A stretch of 64,000 nt of DNA. Origin: Alphaproteobacteria bacterium. Its GTDB lineage: Bacteria > Pseudomonadota > Alphaproteobacteria > SMXQ01. Location of the stretch: assembly GCA_038131655.1 (NCBI GenBank), contig JAYPPT010000002.1, positions 242,762-306,761 of the forward strand, written 5' to 3'. The position numbers were made by a program, and so were the translations under genes. The notes beneath the pieces were generated by a model. It did not search any database. It saw only the letters and a list, made by a program, of their open reading frames with translations, and was not told the DNA's origin. Of the stretch, positions 18,947-54,280 are shown in pieces (within the stretch, counting starts at the first letter, position 1; every line of letters starts with the position of its first letter).

Positions 18947-20133
18947 CCCTGGAGCGGCCAAGCGCGCATCGGCGCCGCGTCAGTATTCTGGGTTCGACGG
19001 GATCAGTCGGCTGCAACACGGTGGATTTGTTGCGCCGCGACCCCGATGCCTATGAGGTCATTGCCCTGACGGCGCGCTCCAACGTGACGTTGCTGGCGGC
19101 GCAGGCGCGGGAATTGCGTCCGCGTCTGGTGGTGATCGCCGACGAAACCCAATACGACGCGCTCAAGGCTGCCCTGGCGGGCACCAATATCGCCGTTGCC
19201 GCGGGCGAGGCGGCGCTGGAAGAAGCGGCGGCTATGGACGCGGACTGGGTCATGGCGGCGATCGTCGGCGCGGCGGGGCTGAAACCGACGCTGGCGGCGG
19301 CGGCGCGGGGCGCCACGGTGGCGCTCGCCAACAAGGAAACCCTGGTTTGCGCCGGCGACATCGTCATGGGTGAACTGCGCCGGTCCGGCGGCACCCTGGT
19401 GCCGGTGGATTCGGAACACAGCGCCATTTTCCAGAGTTTCGATTTCGAGCACGTCGACGCGATCGAGCGCATCATCCTGACCGCATCGGGGGGACCGTTC
19501 CTCGATATGGACATGGCCCGGATGAAGGATGTGACCCCGGCCCAGGCCGTGGCCCATCCCAACTGGGACATGGGGGCGAAGATTTCCGTCGATTCGGCGC
19601 CCATGATGAACAAGGGGCTGGAGGTGATCGAGGCCAGCCACCTGTTCCCAATTCCAGAGGACCGGATCGAGGTCATCATCCACCCGCAGTCGGTGGTCCA
19701 TTCGATGGTCGGCTACAGCGACGGTTCGGTCCTGGCGCAGATGGGAACCCCGGATATGCGCACCCCCATCGCCTACGCCCTGGCGTGGCCCGACAGGCAG
19801 GCGTCTCCGGCGGCCCGCCTTGACCTTGCGGCGGTCGGGCAATTGACCTTCAAGGCCCCGGATTCCGTGCGTTTTCCGGCCCTGGACCTGGCAAGAGAAG
19901 CCTTGAAAACCGGCGGGGCGGCCCCTACAGTCCTGAACGCTGCCAACGAGGTTGCCGTGGCCGGGTTCCTCAACGGTGAGATTGGTTTTCTCGATATCGT
20001 TGCCGTGGTCGCGGCGGGGCTCGAGGCGGCGCCGAGCGGCCCCGTGGCTACCGTCGACGACGTCTTCGCCGTGGACCGTGAGGCGCGGGTGTCGGCTCGG
20101 GAACGGATGGCGCAATTCGCGCTCCGCCGATAG
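18937..20133 (+). CDS. dxr: 1-deoxy-D-xylulose-5-phosphate reductoisomerase
   Basis: LGSTGSVG, LANKE, PVDSEHSA, TASGGPF, HPNW.MG.KIS. Confidence 0.97.
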   Translation: MAITLERPSAHRRRVSILGSTGSVGCNTVDLLRRDPDAYEVIALTARSNVTLLAAQARELRPRLVVIADETQYDALKAALAGTNIAVAAGEAALEEAAAMDADWVMAAIVGAAGLKPTLAAAARGATVALANKETLVCAGDIVMGELRRSGGTLVPVDSEHSAIFQSFDFEHVDAIERIILTASGGPFLDMDMARMKDVTPAQAVAHPNWDMGAKISVDSAPMMNKGLEVIEASHLFPIPEDRIEVIIHPQSVVHSMVGYSDGSVLAQMGTPDMRTPIAYALAWPDRQASPAARLDLAAVGQLTFKAPDSVRFPALDLAREALKTGGAAPTVLNAANEVAVAGFLNGEIGFLDIVAVVAAGLEAAPSGPVATVDDVFAVDREARVSARERMAQFALRR

Positions 20134-21301: not shown

Positions 21302-23605
21302 AGCCCTGCCGCGCCTGGCGCCGGATCGCCGCCTGTGCCGTCCTTGCGCTGGGGATGGTGGCGTTGCTTGTCCCGCTGGCGGCCCGTTCCGCCGTTGCGC
21401 AATCGCCCGGCGGCGTGGTCATCCGGGAAATCAGGGTCGAGGGGATCGAGCGGATCGAGCCCGAAACCGTGCGCTCCTACCTGCCGCTGCGCGCGGGGGC
21501 CGTTTATGATCCCCGCCAGATCGACGTATCGCTGAAGGCGCTGTTCGCGACCGGCCTGTTTTCCGATGTCGGGATCCGGCTGGAAGGCGACGTGGTTATC
21601 GTGCGGGTCAACGAAAACCCGATCATCAACCGTCTTGCCTTCGAAGGTAACGATGTGGTCGAAACCTCGGTGCTGCTGGCGGAGACCCAGTCGCGCTCCC
21701 GCGTCGTCTATACCCGCACACGTGTGCAGAATGACGTCAAGCGTTTGCAGGACTTGTATCGCCGTCAGGGCCGGTTTGCCGCGACGATCGTGCCTAAGGT
21801 CATCACGCGTTCACAGAACCGGGTTGACCTGATTTTCGAGATCAAGGAAGGTGAGCCGACGAAAATCAGGAAGATTACCTTCGTCGGCAACCGATGTATA
21901 CAGCGATAAACGCCTGCGCTTGATCATCGCTAGTGCCGAGACGCGCTGGTACAGTTTTTTGACCGGTGATGATTTTTACGATCCCGACCGCTTGCTCTAT
22001 GACCAGGAATCGTTGCGGCGCTATTACCTGAAGAACGGCTATCCCGAATTCAACGTGCTTTCGGCGATGGCGGAACTGTCGCCGGACCAAAAGACTTTCT
22101 TCCTGACCTTTACGGTGGATGAGGGGAAGCGATACACCTTCGGCGATTTTGAAATTGAGAGCCAGCTCAAGGCGCTCGATGCCAAGAAGCTCCGGAGCTC
22201 GGTCAGCTACAAGCCCGGCGATACCTATAACGCCGAAGAAGTGGAAAAGACGGTTAATGCCCTTACCGATGCCGTCGGCTCGCTCGGCTATGCCTTCGTT
22301 GAGGTGCGTCCGGAACCCAAGCGCGACAAGGAAACCCGCAAGGTCAACATGACCTACAGTGTGCGCGAAGGACCGCGCACCTATATCGAGCGCATCGAGC
22401 TTGGCGGGAATGTTCGCACCGAGGACCGTGTAATCCGGCGCGAATTTCGTCTCGTCGAAGGGGATGCGTTCAATGCTGCGAAGTACCGTTTGTCGCAGCG
22501 GCGGATCAGGGACCTTAACTACTTCAAGGATGTGAAGTTCGAACAGGTTCCGGGGAGGGCGCCCGACAAGACCGTTATCAAGGCCAAGGTGCAGGAAAAG
22601 TCTACGGGGTCTCTCAGTCTCGGCGCTGGCTTTTCCTCTAATGCCGGTTTTGTCACTCAGGTCACGCTGTCGGAACGCAACCTTCTGGGCAAGGGTCAGC
22701 AGTTATCGCTGAGCGCCAGCCTGGGCACGAAGGAGCAGCAGTTCGATATTCGCTTTACCGAACCCTATTTCCTGGGGCGCAACCTGGCGGCGGGTTTCGA
22801 CCTGTTCAACACCAGAAGGCTCAAGACGAATTCGATTGTCTTCGAGGAGGCCAAGACTGGTACGGGCGTCCGTTTGGGCTTTCGCTATAACGAGCACCTT
22901 TACCAGCAGGTAGGCTATAAAATCGAATCGCGTGAGATCAGCGACGTGGATTCCGATGCCTCCCTCTACGTTAAACGTCAGGAAGGTAAGAACACGAACT
23001 CGTCGCTTACCCAGTCTATTACCTATGACGTACGCGACAGCCGTCTTGACCCCACCGAAGGCTATGTCGTGCGCCTGAGCAACCAGTTGGCGGGCCTCGG
23101 TGGCGACAGCCGCTACCTAGAAACTGTGCTTTCGGCGACGTCTTTTTACAGCAGCGTCTTTGATTCGGTGCTCCGGGTGGGCGGTGAAATCGGATATATC
23201 TTAGGACTCGGGCGAGATATTAGGATCAATGAGCGCTTCTTCATCGGGGGTGAAAAGTTGCTGGGCTTCCAGAACGGCGGTATTGGTCCCCGGGATGAGG
23301 CGGCAGGCGATTCCCTGGGCGGCAAGCAGTACGCGACTGCCTTCGCGGAACTGGGCATCCCGCTGATGCCCGTGAACTCCTTCAAGCCGCGCGGCTACCT
23401 GTTCACCAACGCCGGAACGCTGTCCGAAACTGATGATAGCGGCACCGGTATTAAAGATGACGCCCTTATTCGCGTTGGCGCGGGTGTCGGCATTGGATTT
23501 TCGACCCCTTTTGGCGCGCTTCGGTTTAATTTTACCCAGGCCCTAAGAAAAGCGAGTTTCGATAAAACCGAGGTGTTTACCTTCCGGTTTGGCACCACTT
23601 TTTAG
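21298..23605 (+). CDS. bamA: Outer membrane protein assembly factor BamA (frameshift near 21890)
   Basis: POTRA repeats, ERNLLGKGQ, FTEPYF, C-terminal beta-signal FRFGTTF; removing one C at AAC-C-GAT joins the two ORFs. Confidence 0.93.
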
Positions 23606-23613
23606 AGGACGAC

Positions 23614-24219
23614 ATGAACCTTACTGCAAAAATTTTCCTCTCTCTGTGTTTTGTGCTCGTTTGGCTAGCGCCGATGCCCGTTCAGGCGCAGACTACGAAC
23701 CAGCGCTTGAAGGCACCGGTAATCGCCATCCTCGATATGCGAGTGGTCAAGCGGGATTCAATCTCGGGCAAGGCGGTTCAGTCGTTTCTGAACAGCAAGC
23801 GTCGTGCCCACAGGGACCTGATCGCGGCGGAGGAAAAGGCCCTGCGTTTGGCCTGGGAAGAACTGTCGCGTCAGCGCGCTCTCTTGTCGCCGCAGGCGTT
23901 CCAGGCGCGTGAACAGGCTTTTCGAAAAAAGGAAACCGCGGCGAAGCGCAAGATCGTTGCGCTCGAACAGGCCTGGCAGCGTGATCTGCGTGTAACCTTG
24001 ATCGAATTCGAAAAGATCTTGGGTGAAAAGATGCGCCCGATTATAGATAAGGTGATCGAGAGCAAAGGTATCGATATCATCATGGCCAACCAGGACCTGA
24101 TTTACGCCAAGGCCAAGTACAGCATCACTGGCGAAATCCTGAAAGGGATAGACAGGGTGTTGCCGAGTCTAGATGTGCAGGCTCTGGCCAACAAGGTGCT
24201 GCAGAAGAAAAAGCGTTAA
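23614..24219 (+). CDS. skp: OmpH/Skp family periplasmic chaperone
   Basis: Signal peptide, IAILD, long coiled coil, position between bamA and lpxD. Confidence 0.75.
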
Positions 24220-33100: not shown

Positions 33101-34468
33101 ATGAATTTCATCACCCGTCTAATGGCACTGAGTGCCACAGCCTTCATGCTGGCGGGGCCGGCGCTGGCCGCCGAATTGCCCGATGCCACGAAGAAGATGC
33201 TGACCAAGCTCAAGATGGACGCATCCATCCTCAAGGGCCTCGATGATGAGTTGAAGATGCCCCCCGAATGGATCGCGGGCGCCAAGAAGGAAGGCAAGGT
33301 GACCTACTTCGGCACCTTCGGCCTGGGCGAATGGCCGGAGTTCATTGCGCCGTTCAAGGCGCGCTTTCCCTTCATCAATGTCGATCACCAGCGCGGCTCG
33401 CGGCTCGGCCGTGTGGACAAGCCGCTGATCGCCTTCAAGGAGGGCCGCGTGCTCGCCGATGTCATTGCCGCCATCGGCGCCCAGCTCAAGGGCTTCAAGG
33501 AGGCGGGGGCGCTCGAAGACCTGCGCGTGCTGCCCAATTTCAACCAGGCCGATCCCGACATGCGGGCAAAGGACGGCCTGTGGGTCGGCGAAAAGGTCAA
33601 GTACTGGTGCATCGCTTACAACACCAAGCTGGTGAAGAAATCGGAGCTGCCTAAAACCTGGGACGACTTGCTGAGCACAAAGGCGTTGCAGAACAAGAAT
33701 CTCGGCGTTTCCGATCGTCCCCACAACTGGATCCTGCCGCTGTGGACGACCAAGGGCGCGGCCTATACGCGCAACTACATCGATCGCTTCTTCAAGGAGG
33801 TGAATCCCCAGACCCGCAAGGAAGGCGCACGCGCCATCGTTACGCTCGCCATCGCCGGGGAATTTCACGCGGCCCTTCCGGCGACCGATTACCGCGTTGC
33901 CGAATACGCCGAAAAGGGCGCGCCGATTTCATGGCATTGCCCGGAACCGGTGCCGACGACAATTTCGGAGCTGGTCATCATCAAGGGCAGCAAGGCGCCC
34001 AACGCGAGCAAGATTTTCCTCAACTGGTACCTGTCCCGTGAAGGCCAGATCGCCCAGTACTATTCCACCGGCGCCGCGCCGGTGCACAAGGGGCTACAGG
34101 AAATCGGGTTCAGCGCTTATCCCGACCAGATCAAGGGCAAGAAGGCGGCGGTGCGCAGCGCCGACAGCCTGGAAAACGAATTCACCCTGGCTTTGCGCGC
34201 GTGGCACGCGGGCTGGAAGGCGGCGGGCGGCTTTGTCGCCGAGGCGCCCAAGGTGGTCAAGACGACGCTCGCCAAGATCGAGCGCGGCGGGCGCATGCTG
34301 CACTTCAAGGTCGGCGAGGCCATGCACAAGTCCAAGGTATCGGGGTCGCGCACGCAGATCACCATCGGCGGCAAGCCGGCGCGGCGCAACAAGCTGAAGG
34401 TCGGCATGAATTGCGCCGTGACTTACGGCGGCAACGGCTCCGAAGCCAAGTTGGTCGCCTGTCAGTAA
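33101..34468 (+). CDS. Orphan ABC-type extracellular solute-binding protein with an extra C-terminal basic domain
   Basis: Signal peptide (PALA-A), AKKEGKV, F..RFPFI, IAYNT.LV....PKTWDDLL, APNASKIFLNW.LS.EGQ; no permease or ATPase adjacent. Confidence 0.85.
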   Translation: MNFITRLMALSATAFMLAGPALAAELPDATKKMLTKLKMDASILKGLDDELKMPPEWIAGAKKEGKVTYFGTFGLGEWPEFIAPFKARFPFINVDHQRGSRLGRVDKPLIAFKEGRVLADVIAAIGAQLKGFKEAGALEDLRVLPNFNQADPDMRAKDGLWVGEKVKYWCIAYNTKLVKKSELPKTWDDLLSTKALQNKNLGVSDRPHNWILPLWTTKGAAYTRNYIDRFFKEVNPQTRKEGARAIVTLAIAGEFHAALPATDYRVAEYAEKGAPISWHCPEPVPTTISELVIIKGSKAPNASKIFLNWYLSREGQIAQYYSTGAAPVHKGLQEIGFSAYPDQIKGKKAAVRSADSLENEFTLALRAWHAGWKAAGGFVAEAPKVVKTTLAKIERGGRMLHFKVGEAMHKSKVSGSRTQITIGGKPARRNKLKVGMNCAVTYGGNGSEAKLVACQ

Positions 34469-52917: not shown

Positions 52918-52948
52918 AAAAAAGCCCCCGGACATCGCCGGGGGCTTC
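52916..52948. terminator. Intrinsic terminator between ftsB and the tctC-like gene
   Basis: A7-GCCCCCGG-acatcg-CCGGGGGC-TT; strong T tail on the minus strand. Confidence 0.8.
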
Positions 52949-52969: not shown

Positions 52970-54280
52970 CTACTTGCAGTCGATTTTCTTGGCTTCTGAA
53001 CCGGGGCCGGGATAGGTGAAGGTGCACATCATGCCGACCTTCACCGCCTTGCGCTTGGCTTTCTTGCCGCCCACCGTGATCTTGGTGCGCGAACCGGATA
53101 CCTTGGCCTTCACTTCCTTGCCCTTGTATTCGATGAAGATCTGGCGACCGCCTTTCTTGGTCTTGGTGACCTTGCCGGTATGCTTTGCCAGCTCGATCTT
53201 CACCTTCTTGACCGGGCCCTTGTACTTGATCAGGTCCTTGATCTTTTCCACCGTCGCCTTGGGCGCGGCGGCCAGCTCGGCGATCATCTGCTGGACCTCC
53301 TCGCCGCTGATGGGTGAGATCTCGCGCTTCTGTTTCTTGGCGTCGGCCAGGAATTTGGGATCATTCATGGTCGCCATGAATGCCGCGCGCAGGACCTTCA
53401 CCTTGTCGGCGGGGACCTTGGGGCCGACGACATAGGGCCGCCCCATGGCCTTCGAGGTCAGCATCAGGCGCCACCAGGTCTTGGCGTCCTCCACGGAGTA
53501 CTGCGGCAGGACGTGCTTGCGATCGACGAAATCCATGATCATGGGGACGCCCATCCTGGTCAGTTCGGGCAGCGGCTTGAGCGAGAGTTGCACCAGCGGC
53601 GTCACGTTCTTCATGAACCGGGGGCCCGCCAGCAGCTTGAACGAGGACCAGGACTGGCTATAGCCCTCGATCTCGCCGCGCTTGAGGGCAAGATGCCCCT
53701 GGGCGGAGCCGGGGTAACCGCCGATGATCTCGTACTTGGCGCCCATGATGTTGTTGAGCATCGCGGGATAGATTTCCGTGTCCGTCGGACCGGTGGAGCC
53801 GAGGATCGCCTTCACCTTGAAGCCGTCTTCCAGGGTCTTCACCTTGGCGCTTTTCACCACCGCCAGCACGCCGGCTTCGTTGGTGGCGCTGCCGAGCCAC
53901 TGGAACTTGGTAGAAACAAAGGTCGGCCCCTTGTGGCCCATGATCTGGTCGAGGGGGATGGTGCGCTGAACCGCGCCGATGATGCTGCCGTCCTGCGGCG
54001 CGATCCCGTAGATATAGTTGGCGGAGACGATGCCGCCGGCGCCGATCTTGTTCTGGACGATCATCGGCGGCTTGCCGGGGATGTGGCGGGGCAGATGGCG
54101 GGCGAGGGTGCGTGCGTAGGTATCGTAGCCGCCGCCCGAGGACGAGCCGACGATGATCTTCATCTGGGTCTTGGCGTAGAAGTCGGAAATCGCGTCGGAG
54201 TGTGCCGGGCCGGCGCCCGCGACAACCAGGCCGAGCGTCCCGAGGGCACCAATAAAGCTGATATTTTTCAAGCGGTTCAT
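52970..54280 (-). CDS. Orphan TctC/Bug family tripartite tricarboxylate transporter substrate-binding protein with an extra C-terminal basic domain
   Basis: Signal peptide, IIVG.S.GGGYDTYAR, VQN..GAGG, PQDG, GYPG, RGEIEG, DPKFLADAKK; no tctA/tctB adjacent. Confidence 0.87.
   Translation of the reverse strand: MNRLKNISFIGALGTLGLVVAGAGPAHSDAISDFYAKTQMKIIVGSSSGGGYDTYARTLARHLPRHIPGKPPMIVQNKIGAGGIVSANYIYGIAPQDGSIIGAVQRTIPLDQIMGHKGPTFVSTKFQWLGSATNEAGVLAVVKSAKVKTLEDGFKVKAILGSTGPTDTEIYPAMLNNIMGAKYEIIGGYPGSAQGHLALKRGEIEGYSQSWSSFKLLAGPRFMKNVTPLVQLSLKPLPELTRMGVPMIMDFVDRKHVLPQYSVEDAKTWWRLMLTSKAMGRPYVVGPKVPADKVKVLRAAFMATMNDPKFLADAKKQKREISPISGEEVQQMIAELAAAPKATVEKIKDLIKYKGPVKKVKIELAKHTGKVTKTKKGGRQIFIEYKGKEVKAKVSGSRTKITVGGKKAKRKAVKVGMMCTFTYPGPGSEAKKIDCK

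Follow-up and report, generated by a model that had tools for sequence, protein, structure and literature searches.

A window of 64,000 nucleotides of alphaproteobacterial DNA (the whole stretch that was analysed) contains at 52970..54280, on the minus strand, an open reading frame (ORF) of 436 aa plus stop, which encodes a secreted TctC-like solute-binding protein (SBP) with an additional C-terminal domain, hereinafter the tail. The tail is confidently predicted to be an autonomous β-barrel domain of the oligonucleotide/oligosaccharide-binding (OB) type. It is strongly cationic, it recurs on SBPs throughout the source genome, and on a tree of SBP bodies it alternates with plain runs of lysine. 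We tentatively propose, with a confidence that falls a little short of even, that the tail is an electrostatic tether of the SBP to an anionic surface of the cell envelope.

A C-terminal barrel on solute-binding proteins

The tail of the target protein (residues 362-436; 52973..53197, minus strand) has a counterpart in the window. This second carrier, copy 1 (33101..34468, plus strand), is a secreted ATP-binding cassette (ABC)-type SBP of 455 aa (Pfam SBP_bac_8, E 2.5e-14; SBP_bac_1, E 7.8e-14; SBP_bac_6, E 4.5e-9), and its OB-fold tail lies at 34241..34465 on the plus strand, with a hidden Markov model (HMM) score of 142 bits. Identity between the two tails is 44% over 75 aa, and both contain the motif GGR...KVSGSRT.IT.GGK.A.R...KVGM.C..TY...EAK...C. 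An HMM built from these two tails alone finds 35 ORFs in the 2.42-Mb source genome, with E values of 1e-47 to 1e-4 that place the match far beyond chance; 36 copies are found after iteration, and a genome search counts 38 matches. The shared C-terminal module described in the original prediction, an earlier reading of the letters of this DNA, is thus real. The interval given there, 52970-53200, corresponds to the tail plus the stop codon (OB domain 53197-52973).

Folded alone with AlphaFold2 (AF2) from an alignment of 31 tails, as the original prediction had suggested, the tail is modelled as a six-stranded OB barrel with a predicted local distance difference test score (pLDDT) of 94.3 and a predicted template modelling score (pTM) of 0.79. 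The strands assigned by DSSP (4-14, 19-24, 27-32, 39-42, 57-62 and 71-74, with a helical turn at 49-51) agree with those of the tail in the full-length AF2 model. The model contains the features that define an OB fold, a closed five-stranded barrel and, between strands 3 and 4, a short helix or turn. Across the 31 tails, K53, G55, C58 and C74 are invariant, G17, R18, G44, M56 and A69 are invariant or nearly so, and the loops GGR and SGSRT are moderately conserved. Among 195 domains, both cysteines are present in 140, neither in 49 and only one in 6. Because the two cysteines are conserved together and all carriers have signal peptides, the pair (Cys419 and Cys435 of the target) is consistent with a disulfide, formed in the periplasm, that links the last two strands of the model.

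The fold of the tail has only distant counterparts among solved structures. Foldseek gives no match in the PDB at E <= 1e-3, the best being the metallochaperone CusF (E 3e-3; template modelling (TM) score 0.65-0.70). VIA-align returns 167 chains at Z >= 5, with OB folds at Z 6.6-8.6. The best of them is the S-layer protein self-assembly domain 9fs9 (Z 8.6; root-mean-square deviation 2.2 over 66 residues), and the other listed matches include the AspRS/AsnRS anticodon domains, PriB, SSB, RPA, MCM, PilY2, YobA and SilF (Z 6.6). Since Z values of 6.6-8.6 lie within the stated background of VIA-align, they support only a generic OB fold. The small periplasmic barrel of five to six strands is reminiscent of CusF and SilF, but no match to them reaches E 1e-3. 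The metal-binding set of CusF consists of His, Met, Met and Trp. This set has no conserved counterpart in the tail, and no His or Trp is conserved in the tail alignment.

By sequence, the tail likewise stands apart from named families. A search of PDB sequences gives noise only (E >= 0.8), Pfam reports nothing above its cut-offs (Big_3, E 0.019), NCBIfam gives no match, and the ESM Atlas holds nothing at 0.9 or above. Pfam DUF5666 (PF18914) does not match the tail alone or the whole target at E <= 1. At the level of profiles, hhalign aligns the 31 tails with seven Pfam-delimited DUF5666 segments at 95.9% probability (E 5e-9, 66 columns), the seven proteins having themselves first been retrieved with the tail profile. 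This profile finds 638 of 1.84 billion representative proteins at E <= 1e-3 and 298 at E <= 1e-10, and the best matches include multi-repeat proteins that Pfam calls DUF5666 or CusF_Ec. The tail therein is mostly a C-terminal domain (134 of the 147 top-match proteins with a domain match). The 120 of 331 tail-region matches that were listed are named only 'TctC' or 'hypothetical', with a precomputed Pfam PF03401 or none. Some representatives depart from the usual form: P0001 and P0002 have two tandem tails, P0006 joins a signal peptide straight to the tail, and the tails of P0005 and P0009 are acidic.

Taken by its profile, the tail is probably a polycationic branch of the DUF5666 OB-fold family that is specific to this lineage, and the homology is remote. 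DUF5666 domains are OB-like repeats in periplasmic or extracytoplasmic proteins, and the tail profile retrieves such multi-repeat proteins. The tail differs from them in being a single C-terminal copy on SBPs, in its cysteine pair and in its median charge of +13, against 0 for the repeats. DUF5666 is mentioned only in passing in the literature passages among the matches listed.

Of the 36 copies in the source genome (whose contigs are labelled C1, C2 and so on), 31 are on secreted proteins of 409-485 aa with signal peptides. Judged by eye and by a hydropathy scan, every one of these carriers has an N-terminal hydrophobic core followed by an A-x-A-like site, and a lipobox-like string occurs in a single one (C3:10018-11463, ...LAVAGC). 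In 30 of the 31 full-length carriers the tail occupies the extreme C-terminus; the exception is a divergent copy of charge 0, C1:158098-159594, which has 68 further residues after the tail. A maximum-likelihood tree of 58 SBP bodies, from which the divergent copy was left out, assigns 26 carriers to a TctC-like clade and 4 to one of the ABC type; both clades have 100% support in the Shimodaira-Hasegawa-like approximate likelihood ratio test (SH-aLRT). Pfam TctC matches the target and 15 of the 29 other carriers at E < 0.01, while SBP_bac_1/6/8 match copy 1 and 3 of the 29; one of the 29 has only a weak match to Phosphonate-bd and 10 match nothing. Another copy, C5:19755-20090 (plus strand; locus L030), is a stand-alone secreted tail of ~100 aa, made of a signal peptide, a GGGGG linker and the barrel, without a Pfam match. 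It is located 2.8 kb from a tctA, beside the decayed tail-bearing tctC fragments C5:18349-18486 and 19201-19338. Four short partial tails without a body (C2:98355-98576, C2:148278-148430, C2:328440-328664 and C5:18349-18486) look like what is left of tail-bearing genes that were deleted or have decayed.

The tails are more alike than the proteins that carry them. Specifically, median identity among carriers is 39.7% for the tail vs 25.5% for the body, and in 432 of 465 pairs it is the tail that is more similar. Between ABC-type and TctC-type carriers, tails share 39% identity, as tails do generally, while the bodies share 13.5%; the tails do not sort by carrier class. For the target and C4:5466-6782, the tails are 90% and the bodies 49% identical. 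Their third codon positions agree at 39 of 45 over the last 50 residues, and third-position identity is 0.76 for this pair, against 0.61 ± 0.11 for tails generally. Codon bias underlies the general agreement, and gene conversion between the two tails is therefore not shown.

The expectation of more carriers elsewhere was also borne out beyond the source genome. The tail is present in 23 of the 24 other genomes of the same family, with 4-58 matches each, and the sole family genome without it is 83% complete. It is absent from 16 genomes that represent 16 other families. Of the ~208 families covered by an evenly drawn set of 400 genomes from the class, only two have it, namely the source family (3 of 3 genomes) and one other (2 genomes, 2 matches each). 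Named relatives of the tail are all from metagenome-assembled genomes (MAGs) of uncultured 'Alphaproteobacteria' or 'Rhodospirillaceae'. Homologues of the target body in Bradyrhizobiaceae (53% identity), Xanthobacteraceae, Beijerinckiaceae and other MAGs end directly after the last SBP helix, so the tail is an addition to a plain SBP.

Charge of the tail and its alternation with poly-lysine

The target tail has a net charge of +17. Tail charge ranges from +6 to +18 in 30 of the 31 full-length carriers of the genome, with a median of +14 on 73 aa and an isoelectric point (pI) of 10.4. The 129 C-terminal two-cysteine tails drawn from the best 150 database representatives are similar, with a median charge of +13 and a charge of at least +5 in 110. 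The 55 related domains in which the cysteine pair is incomplete or absent are mostly DUF5666-type repeats, and their median charge is 0.

Most of the apparently 'tail-less' TctC paralogues of the genome finish in lysine runs, e.g. ...KKKKKKKKKSN. A genome-wide scan gives 28 ORFs with a terminal lysine run, whereas internal runs of at least six lysines do not occur in any ORF of 100 aa or longer. At E < 1e-3, 10 of the 28 match TctC and 3 match ABC SBP families; a further 10 have no match at this threshold, yet all 10 join SBP clades on the tree. The other five are non-SBPs with weaker tails (Mdh, HlyD-type, GlmU, trigger factor and glyoxalase). The 23 SBP-like proteins, of which the body tree assigns 20 to the TctC-like clade and 3 to the ABC-type clade, have runs of 4-13 lysines and 8-13 lysines among their final 16 residues; examples from loci L068-L095 are C2:332436-333563 (minus strand), C1:164259-165425 (plus strand) and C8:9111-10298 (plus strand). 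Their N-termini are signal-peptide-like, of the twin-arginine type in two.

In seven of these 23 proteins a Cys-x(2-10)-Cys loop directly precedes the lysines (e.g. C..9..CRKKKK), namely in the three examples just given and in C1:924366-925652, C2:457220-458548, C6:16877-18154 and C7:49428-50528. Such a loop is also found in two other genera (L102-L104, L107). From its sequence, the loop together with the lysine run may form a disulfide-closed cationic hairpin.

Of the other 24 family genomes, 16 contain lysine-codon runs by a DNA pattern search, whose reversed-pattern control is uninformative, as the pattern reads nearly alike both ways. Seven poly-lysine runs were sampled from two other genera, and each of them ends an SBP-like ORF (3 TctC-like, 2 PhnD and 2 without a family). 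Within the source genome, the DctP proteins of tripartite ATP-independent periplasmic (TRAP) transport systems and the Peripla_BP_6 and SBP_bac_5 binding proteins have neither the OB tail nor poly-lysine. One SBP_bac_5 (peptide-type) protein, C1:616687-618705 (minus strand), ends in a hydrophobic helix followed by RRRRRK (...GLPWGWIGGAAALAVLVIWRRRRRKGGTA). By its sequence this ending looks like a C-terminal membrane anchor or sorting signal, which would be a third type of attachment on an SBP.

On the body tree, OB and poly-lysine forms are interleaved. Parsimony requires 13 changes for the OB tail and 11 for poly-lysine; counting strongly supported branches alone, at least 7 and at least 6 changes remain. 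Supported sister pairs of an OB and a poly-lysine form are found in both the TctC clade and the ABC clade. Altogether, ~54 binding proteins of the genome bear one of the two polycationic C-terminal appendages.

Possible roles of the tail

The two appendages occupy the same position, on SBPs only, on several SBP classes, and with repeated exchange. This suggests that the poly-lysine run is a functional twin of the OB tail, and points to a shared job that rests on charge and is not specific to a transporter or a ligand. The proposed tether would work as follows. A 75-residue barrel, probably stapled by one disulfide, has been added behind the last helix of a periplasmic SBP of the TctC/Bug type, and the module has been placed on dozens of SBPs of the family, from at least two unrelated transporter classes, the tripartite tricarboxylate transporters (TTT) and the ABC transporters. 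OB tail and lysine run have replaced each other repeatedly in the history of the family. The cationic tail would adhere, in a reversible manner, to an anionic part of the envelope; the likeliest candidates are the head groups of phospholipids at the periplasmic face of the inner membrane. Tethering would confine the SBPs near the few membrane transporters that they share. The data show the fold, charge, cysteine pair and distribution of the tail, its exchange with poly-lysine and its independence of transporter class and orphan status; that charge is the working property, what the tail binds and how uptake would benefit, we infer.

Such an arrangement would do without lipid what lipoprotein or transmembrane anchors do for SBPs in other bacteria. 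By analogy with the membrane-anchored SBPs of Gram-positive bacteria and archaea and with lipoprotein TAXI-TRAP proteins, as described in passages of PMC11574862 and PMC5812351, the outcome would be an SBP held at the membrane. Unlike these proteins, 30 of the 31 carriers have no lipobox, and they have no hydrophobic helix; attachment would be electrostatic and reversible. For TAXI SBPs, a passage of PMC11574862 (citing Roden et al. 2023) states that membrane tethering would raise the local SBP concentration.

Several observations weigh against a tether. A folded, disulfide-stapled barrel of 75 residues with conserved loops exceeds what a charge patch needs, and the conserved loops could mark a specific binding site. 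The stand-alone secreted copy has nothing to tether. Positive charge is lacking in 5 of the 129 tails from the database, which are neutral or acidic (-2 to -7), and the divergent genome copy C1:158098-159594 is uncharged. The SBP bodies are basic too (median +14, pI 9.7), so the tail charge may partly reflect a general bias of the secreted proteins of this organism; the bodies of the 31 carriers and 16 other TctC-like proteins have pI 9.4-10.2 and net charges of +9 to +35, and the cytoplasmic enzymes in the window (enolase, PdhB, GltX, MoeA and TrpD) are acidic, with pI 4.6-5.7. Finally, OB tails and poly-lysine co-vary across genera and do not compensate for each other, and poly-lysine runs are missing from the genera in which OB matches number just 4-9.

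The conserved loops are also where the tail could dock one specific shared protein partner, such as a scaffold, a sensor or a common feature of transporter subunits, by way of the ligand face of the OB fold. Docking would suit the higher conservation of tail than body, the moderate to strong conservation of the GGR, SGSRT and K..GM.C motifs, the stand-alone secreted copy and the fact that OB folds commonly bind ligands. We nevertheless consider it unlikely, given that the tail is on SBPs of two unrelated transporter classes, that a featureless poly-lysine takes its place in sister proteins, that Gly, Cys, Met, Thr and hydrophobic residues, typical of turns and core, make up most of the strictly conserved positions, and that no candidate partner was found. 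Binding of a small anionic or metal ligand in the manner of CusF, or the gathering of anionic substrates by the tail as an antenna, is the least probable of the readings weighed here. CusF and SilF are indeed among the closest folds (CusF E 3e-3; SilF Z 6.6), and some related repeat proteins match Pfam CusF_Ec. However, there is no conserved His/Trp column, the sole conserved Met is in a core-like position, the cysteines behave as a structural pair, and the carrier bodies come from families with different ligands.

Two further explanations were weighed. Tail-specific periplasmic proteases prefer non-polar C-termini, and both appendages are at the extreme C-terminus and only on secreted SBPs; a cationic end might therefore protect or stabilise the SBP without localising it, by blocking these proteases or by keeping abundant SBPs soluble. 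A few charged residues would suffice for this, so that a 75-residue barrel or 13 lysines is excess, and the other periplasmic SBP classes of the genome manage without an appendage, which makes protection improbable. Self-association of SBPs through the tail, into homo- or hetero-oligomers or a periplasmic lattice, appears more doubtful again: two domains of ~+15 each should repel, and the interchangeable poly-lysine cannot self-associate without a polyanion. Many OB proteins oligomerise, proteins with two tandem tails exist (P0001 and P0002), and the best VIA-align match of the tail is the self-assembly domain 9fs9, but its Z of 8.6 lies in the background stated for the tool. As to solubility, passages of PMC5812351 describe Bug proteins as very abundant in other bacteria.

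The tail occurs on SBPs with and without a transporter gene nearby. The original prediction had inferred an adaptor or anchor for orphan TctC proteins and had proposed counting tail-bearing proteins and tctAB loci; the genome has 36 tail copies vs 10 intact tctA genes (plus one broken copy) and several tctB. SBPs thus outnumber transporters, with >45 TctC-like SBPs vs 10 intact TctA. TctA or an ABC permease is encoded within 3 kb of five of the 31 carriers: four are at 103-820 bp from a tctA, and one of the ABC type, in an ABC operon, is 1.4 kb from a permease. A tail-bearing SBP adjoins 4 of the 10 intact TctA loci. In the tctAB operon C1:1180214-1183641, for example, the SBP bears the tail. 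Because 5 of 31 carriers adjoin TctA or an ABC permease, the tail is not an orphan-specific adaptor. The anchor half of the earlier idea gains indirect support from the polycationic tail and its replacement by poly-lysine, and a role specific to orphans or to TctA/TctB is not supported, given these loci and the ABC-type carriers. A membrane subunit adjoins 5 of 31 OB tails, 4 of 23 poly-lysine tails and 2 of 5 plain TctC, numbers too small to show a trend between tail and orphan status. Among the tctA genes themselves, the broken copy (C5:13902-15019, plus strand) gives matches over several frames, one with an internal TGA; C6:7914-9794 and C1:1221875-1223746 (both minus strand) are single frames of 664 and 688 aa for fused TctA-TctB carriers, and two further tctA frames are 676-686 aa long.

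Binding proteins of diderm bacteria are usually pictured as freely diffusing. The repeated swapping of the two tails makes it a testable idea that cells hold binding proteins at a charged surface. With more caution than for the tether itself, we suggest that two interchangeable polycationic modules constitute an undescribed, lipid-free way of tethering SBPs that lets many orphans share few transporters. Full-text literature searches gave no description of a TctC protein or another SBP that is extended by an OB fold or by poly-lysine. What is new here is the link between the OB and poly-lysine tails, through their coexistence in one genome and their alternation on the body tree, together with the difference in charge from DUF5666 repeats, the relation to DUF5666 at profile level and the comparison with orphan status. 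Passages of PMC5812351 treat as unsettled how orphan TctC/Bug proteins, in their dozens, reach a few TctAB carriers, and the tether, if true, would give an experimental handle on how these orphans are used. As a compact, confidently modelled cationic barrel without a family entry or a solved relative, the tail is also an appealing candidate for structure determination, with a possible use as a fusion tag.

The target gene and its surroundings

The body of the target (residues 29-352; 53225..54196, minus strand) is predicted to have a TctC/Bug fold, because its structural matches go first to solved TTT binding proteins. Specifically, Foldseek against the PDB gives solved TTT SBPs at E 1e-16 to 1e-11 and TM scores (target) of 0.65-0.83, including TBP 8hk9 (E 1.2e-16), TctC 4x9t (E 3.9e-16), TphC 7ndr, Bug27 2qpq, BugD 2f5x and MatC 6hke; the best 13 listed matches (ranks 1-14) are all TTT SBPs (E 1.2e-16 to 1.5e-11). 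The model has the two lobes of a type II periplasmic-binding-protein fold. Pfam TctC (PF03401) scores 19.6 bits (E 7.3e-4), below the gathering cut-off of 27, and NCBIfam gives no match to the target. The 'complete TctC fold' of the original prediction therefore holds for the structure and falls short at the Pfam cut-off, and the fold ends where it was placed, the final SBP helix closing at K352 (...EKIKDLIK).

The full-length AF2 model, from an alignment of 37 homologues, has a pLDDT of 91.1 and a pTM of 0.80, with residues 1-23 at pLDDT <50. The signal peptide (residues 1-28; 54197..54280, minus strand), MNRLKNISFIGALGTLGLVVAGAGPAHS followed by DA, consists of a hydrophobic core and then A-x-S, the cleavage site being placed by eye. 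Its end, ...GAGPAHS before DA, contains no Cys, and the target has neither a lipobox nor a lipoprotein anchor. The linker YKGPVKKVK (residues 353-361; 53198..53224, minus strand) lies between the last helix (341-350) and the barrel in the AF2 model and forms a short strand at 357-359 (pLDDT ~88).

With its two-lobed body, its secretion and the absence of tctAB nearby, the target resembles other TctC/Bug SBPs, most of which are orphans lacking a nearby tctAB according to passages of PMC5812351. It differs in that the solved chains have 288-302 residues and homologues from other families finish with the last helix, beyond which the target has 84 more residues, an extra domain. A C-terminal extension on TctC/Bug proteins is not mentioned in PMC5994714, where the term 'C-terminal' has 0 occurrences.

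The target gene is flanked by genes for DivIC/FtsB (PF04977, E 1.5e-9) and PdhA (E1_dh, E 1e-107), with enolase also among its neighbours. It is convergent to ftsB and divergent from pdhA, and an intrinsic-terminator-like hairpin, by consensus match, stands just 3' of the stop codon (52921..52948, minus strand; 11-bp stem with 8 G-C pairs, then TTTTTT). The gene is thus probably monocistronic, as the original prediction had it, and it is an orphan, since no TctA or TctB match lies on its contig. Another MAG holds a 69% ortholog of the target (L042; Pfam TctC 31.5 bits) among genes for an ABC-2 permease, a TPR protein and LON_substr_bdg, with no tctAB nearby. Because this ortholog has a different neighbourhood, the position between ftsB and pdhA is uninformative on function, and conserved synteny was rejected as a functional clue. 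Elsewhere in the window, G+C drops to 0.564 at 22001-24000, against 0.62-0.67 in most other 2-kb bins.

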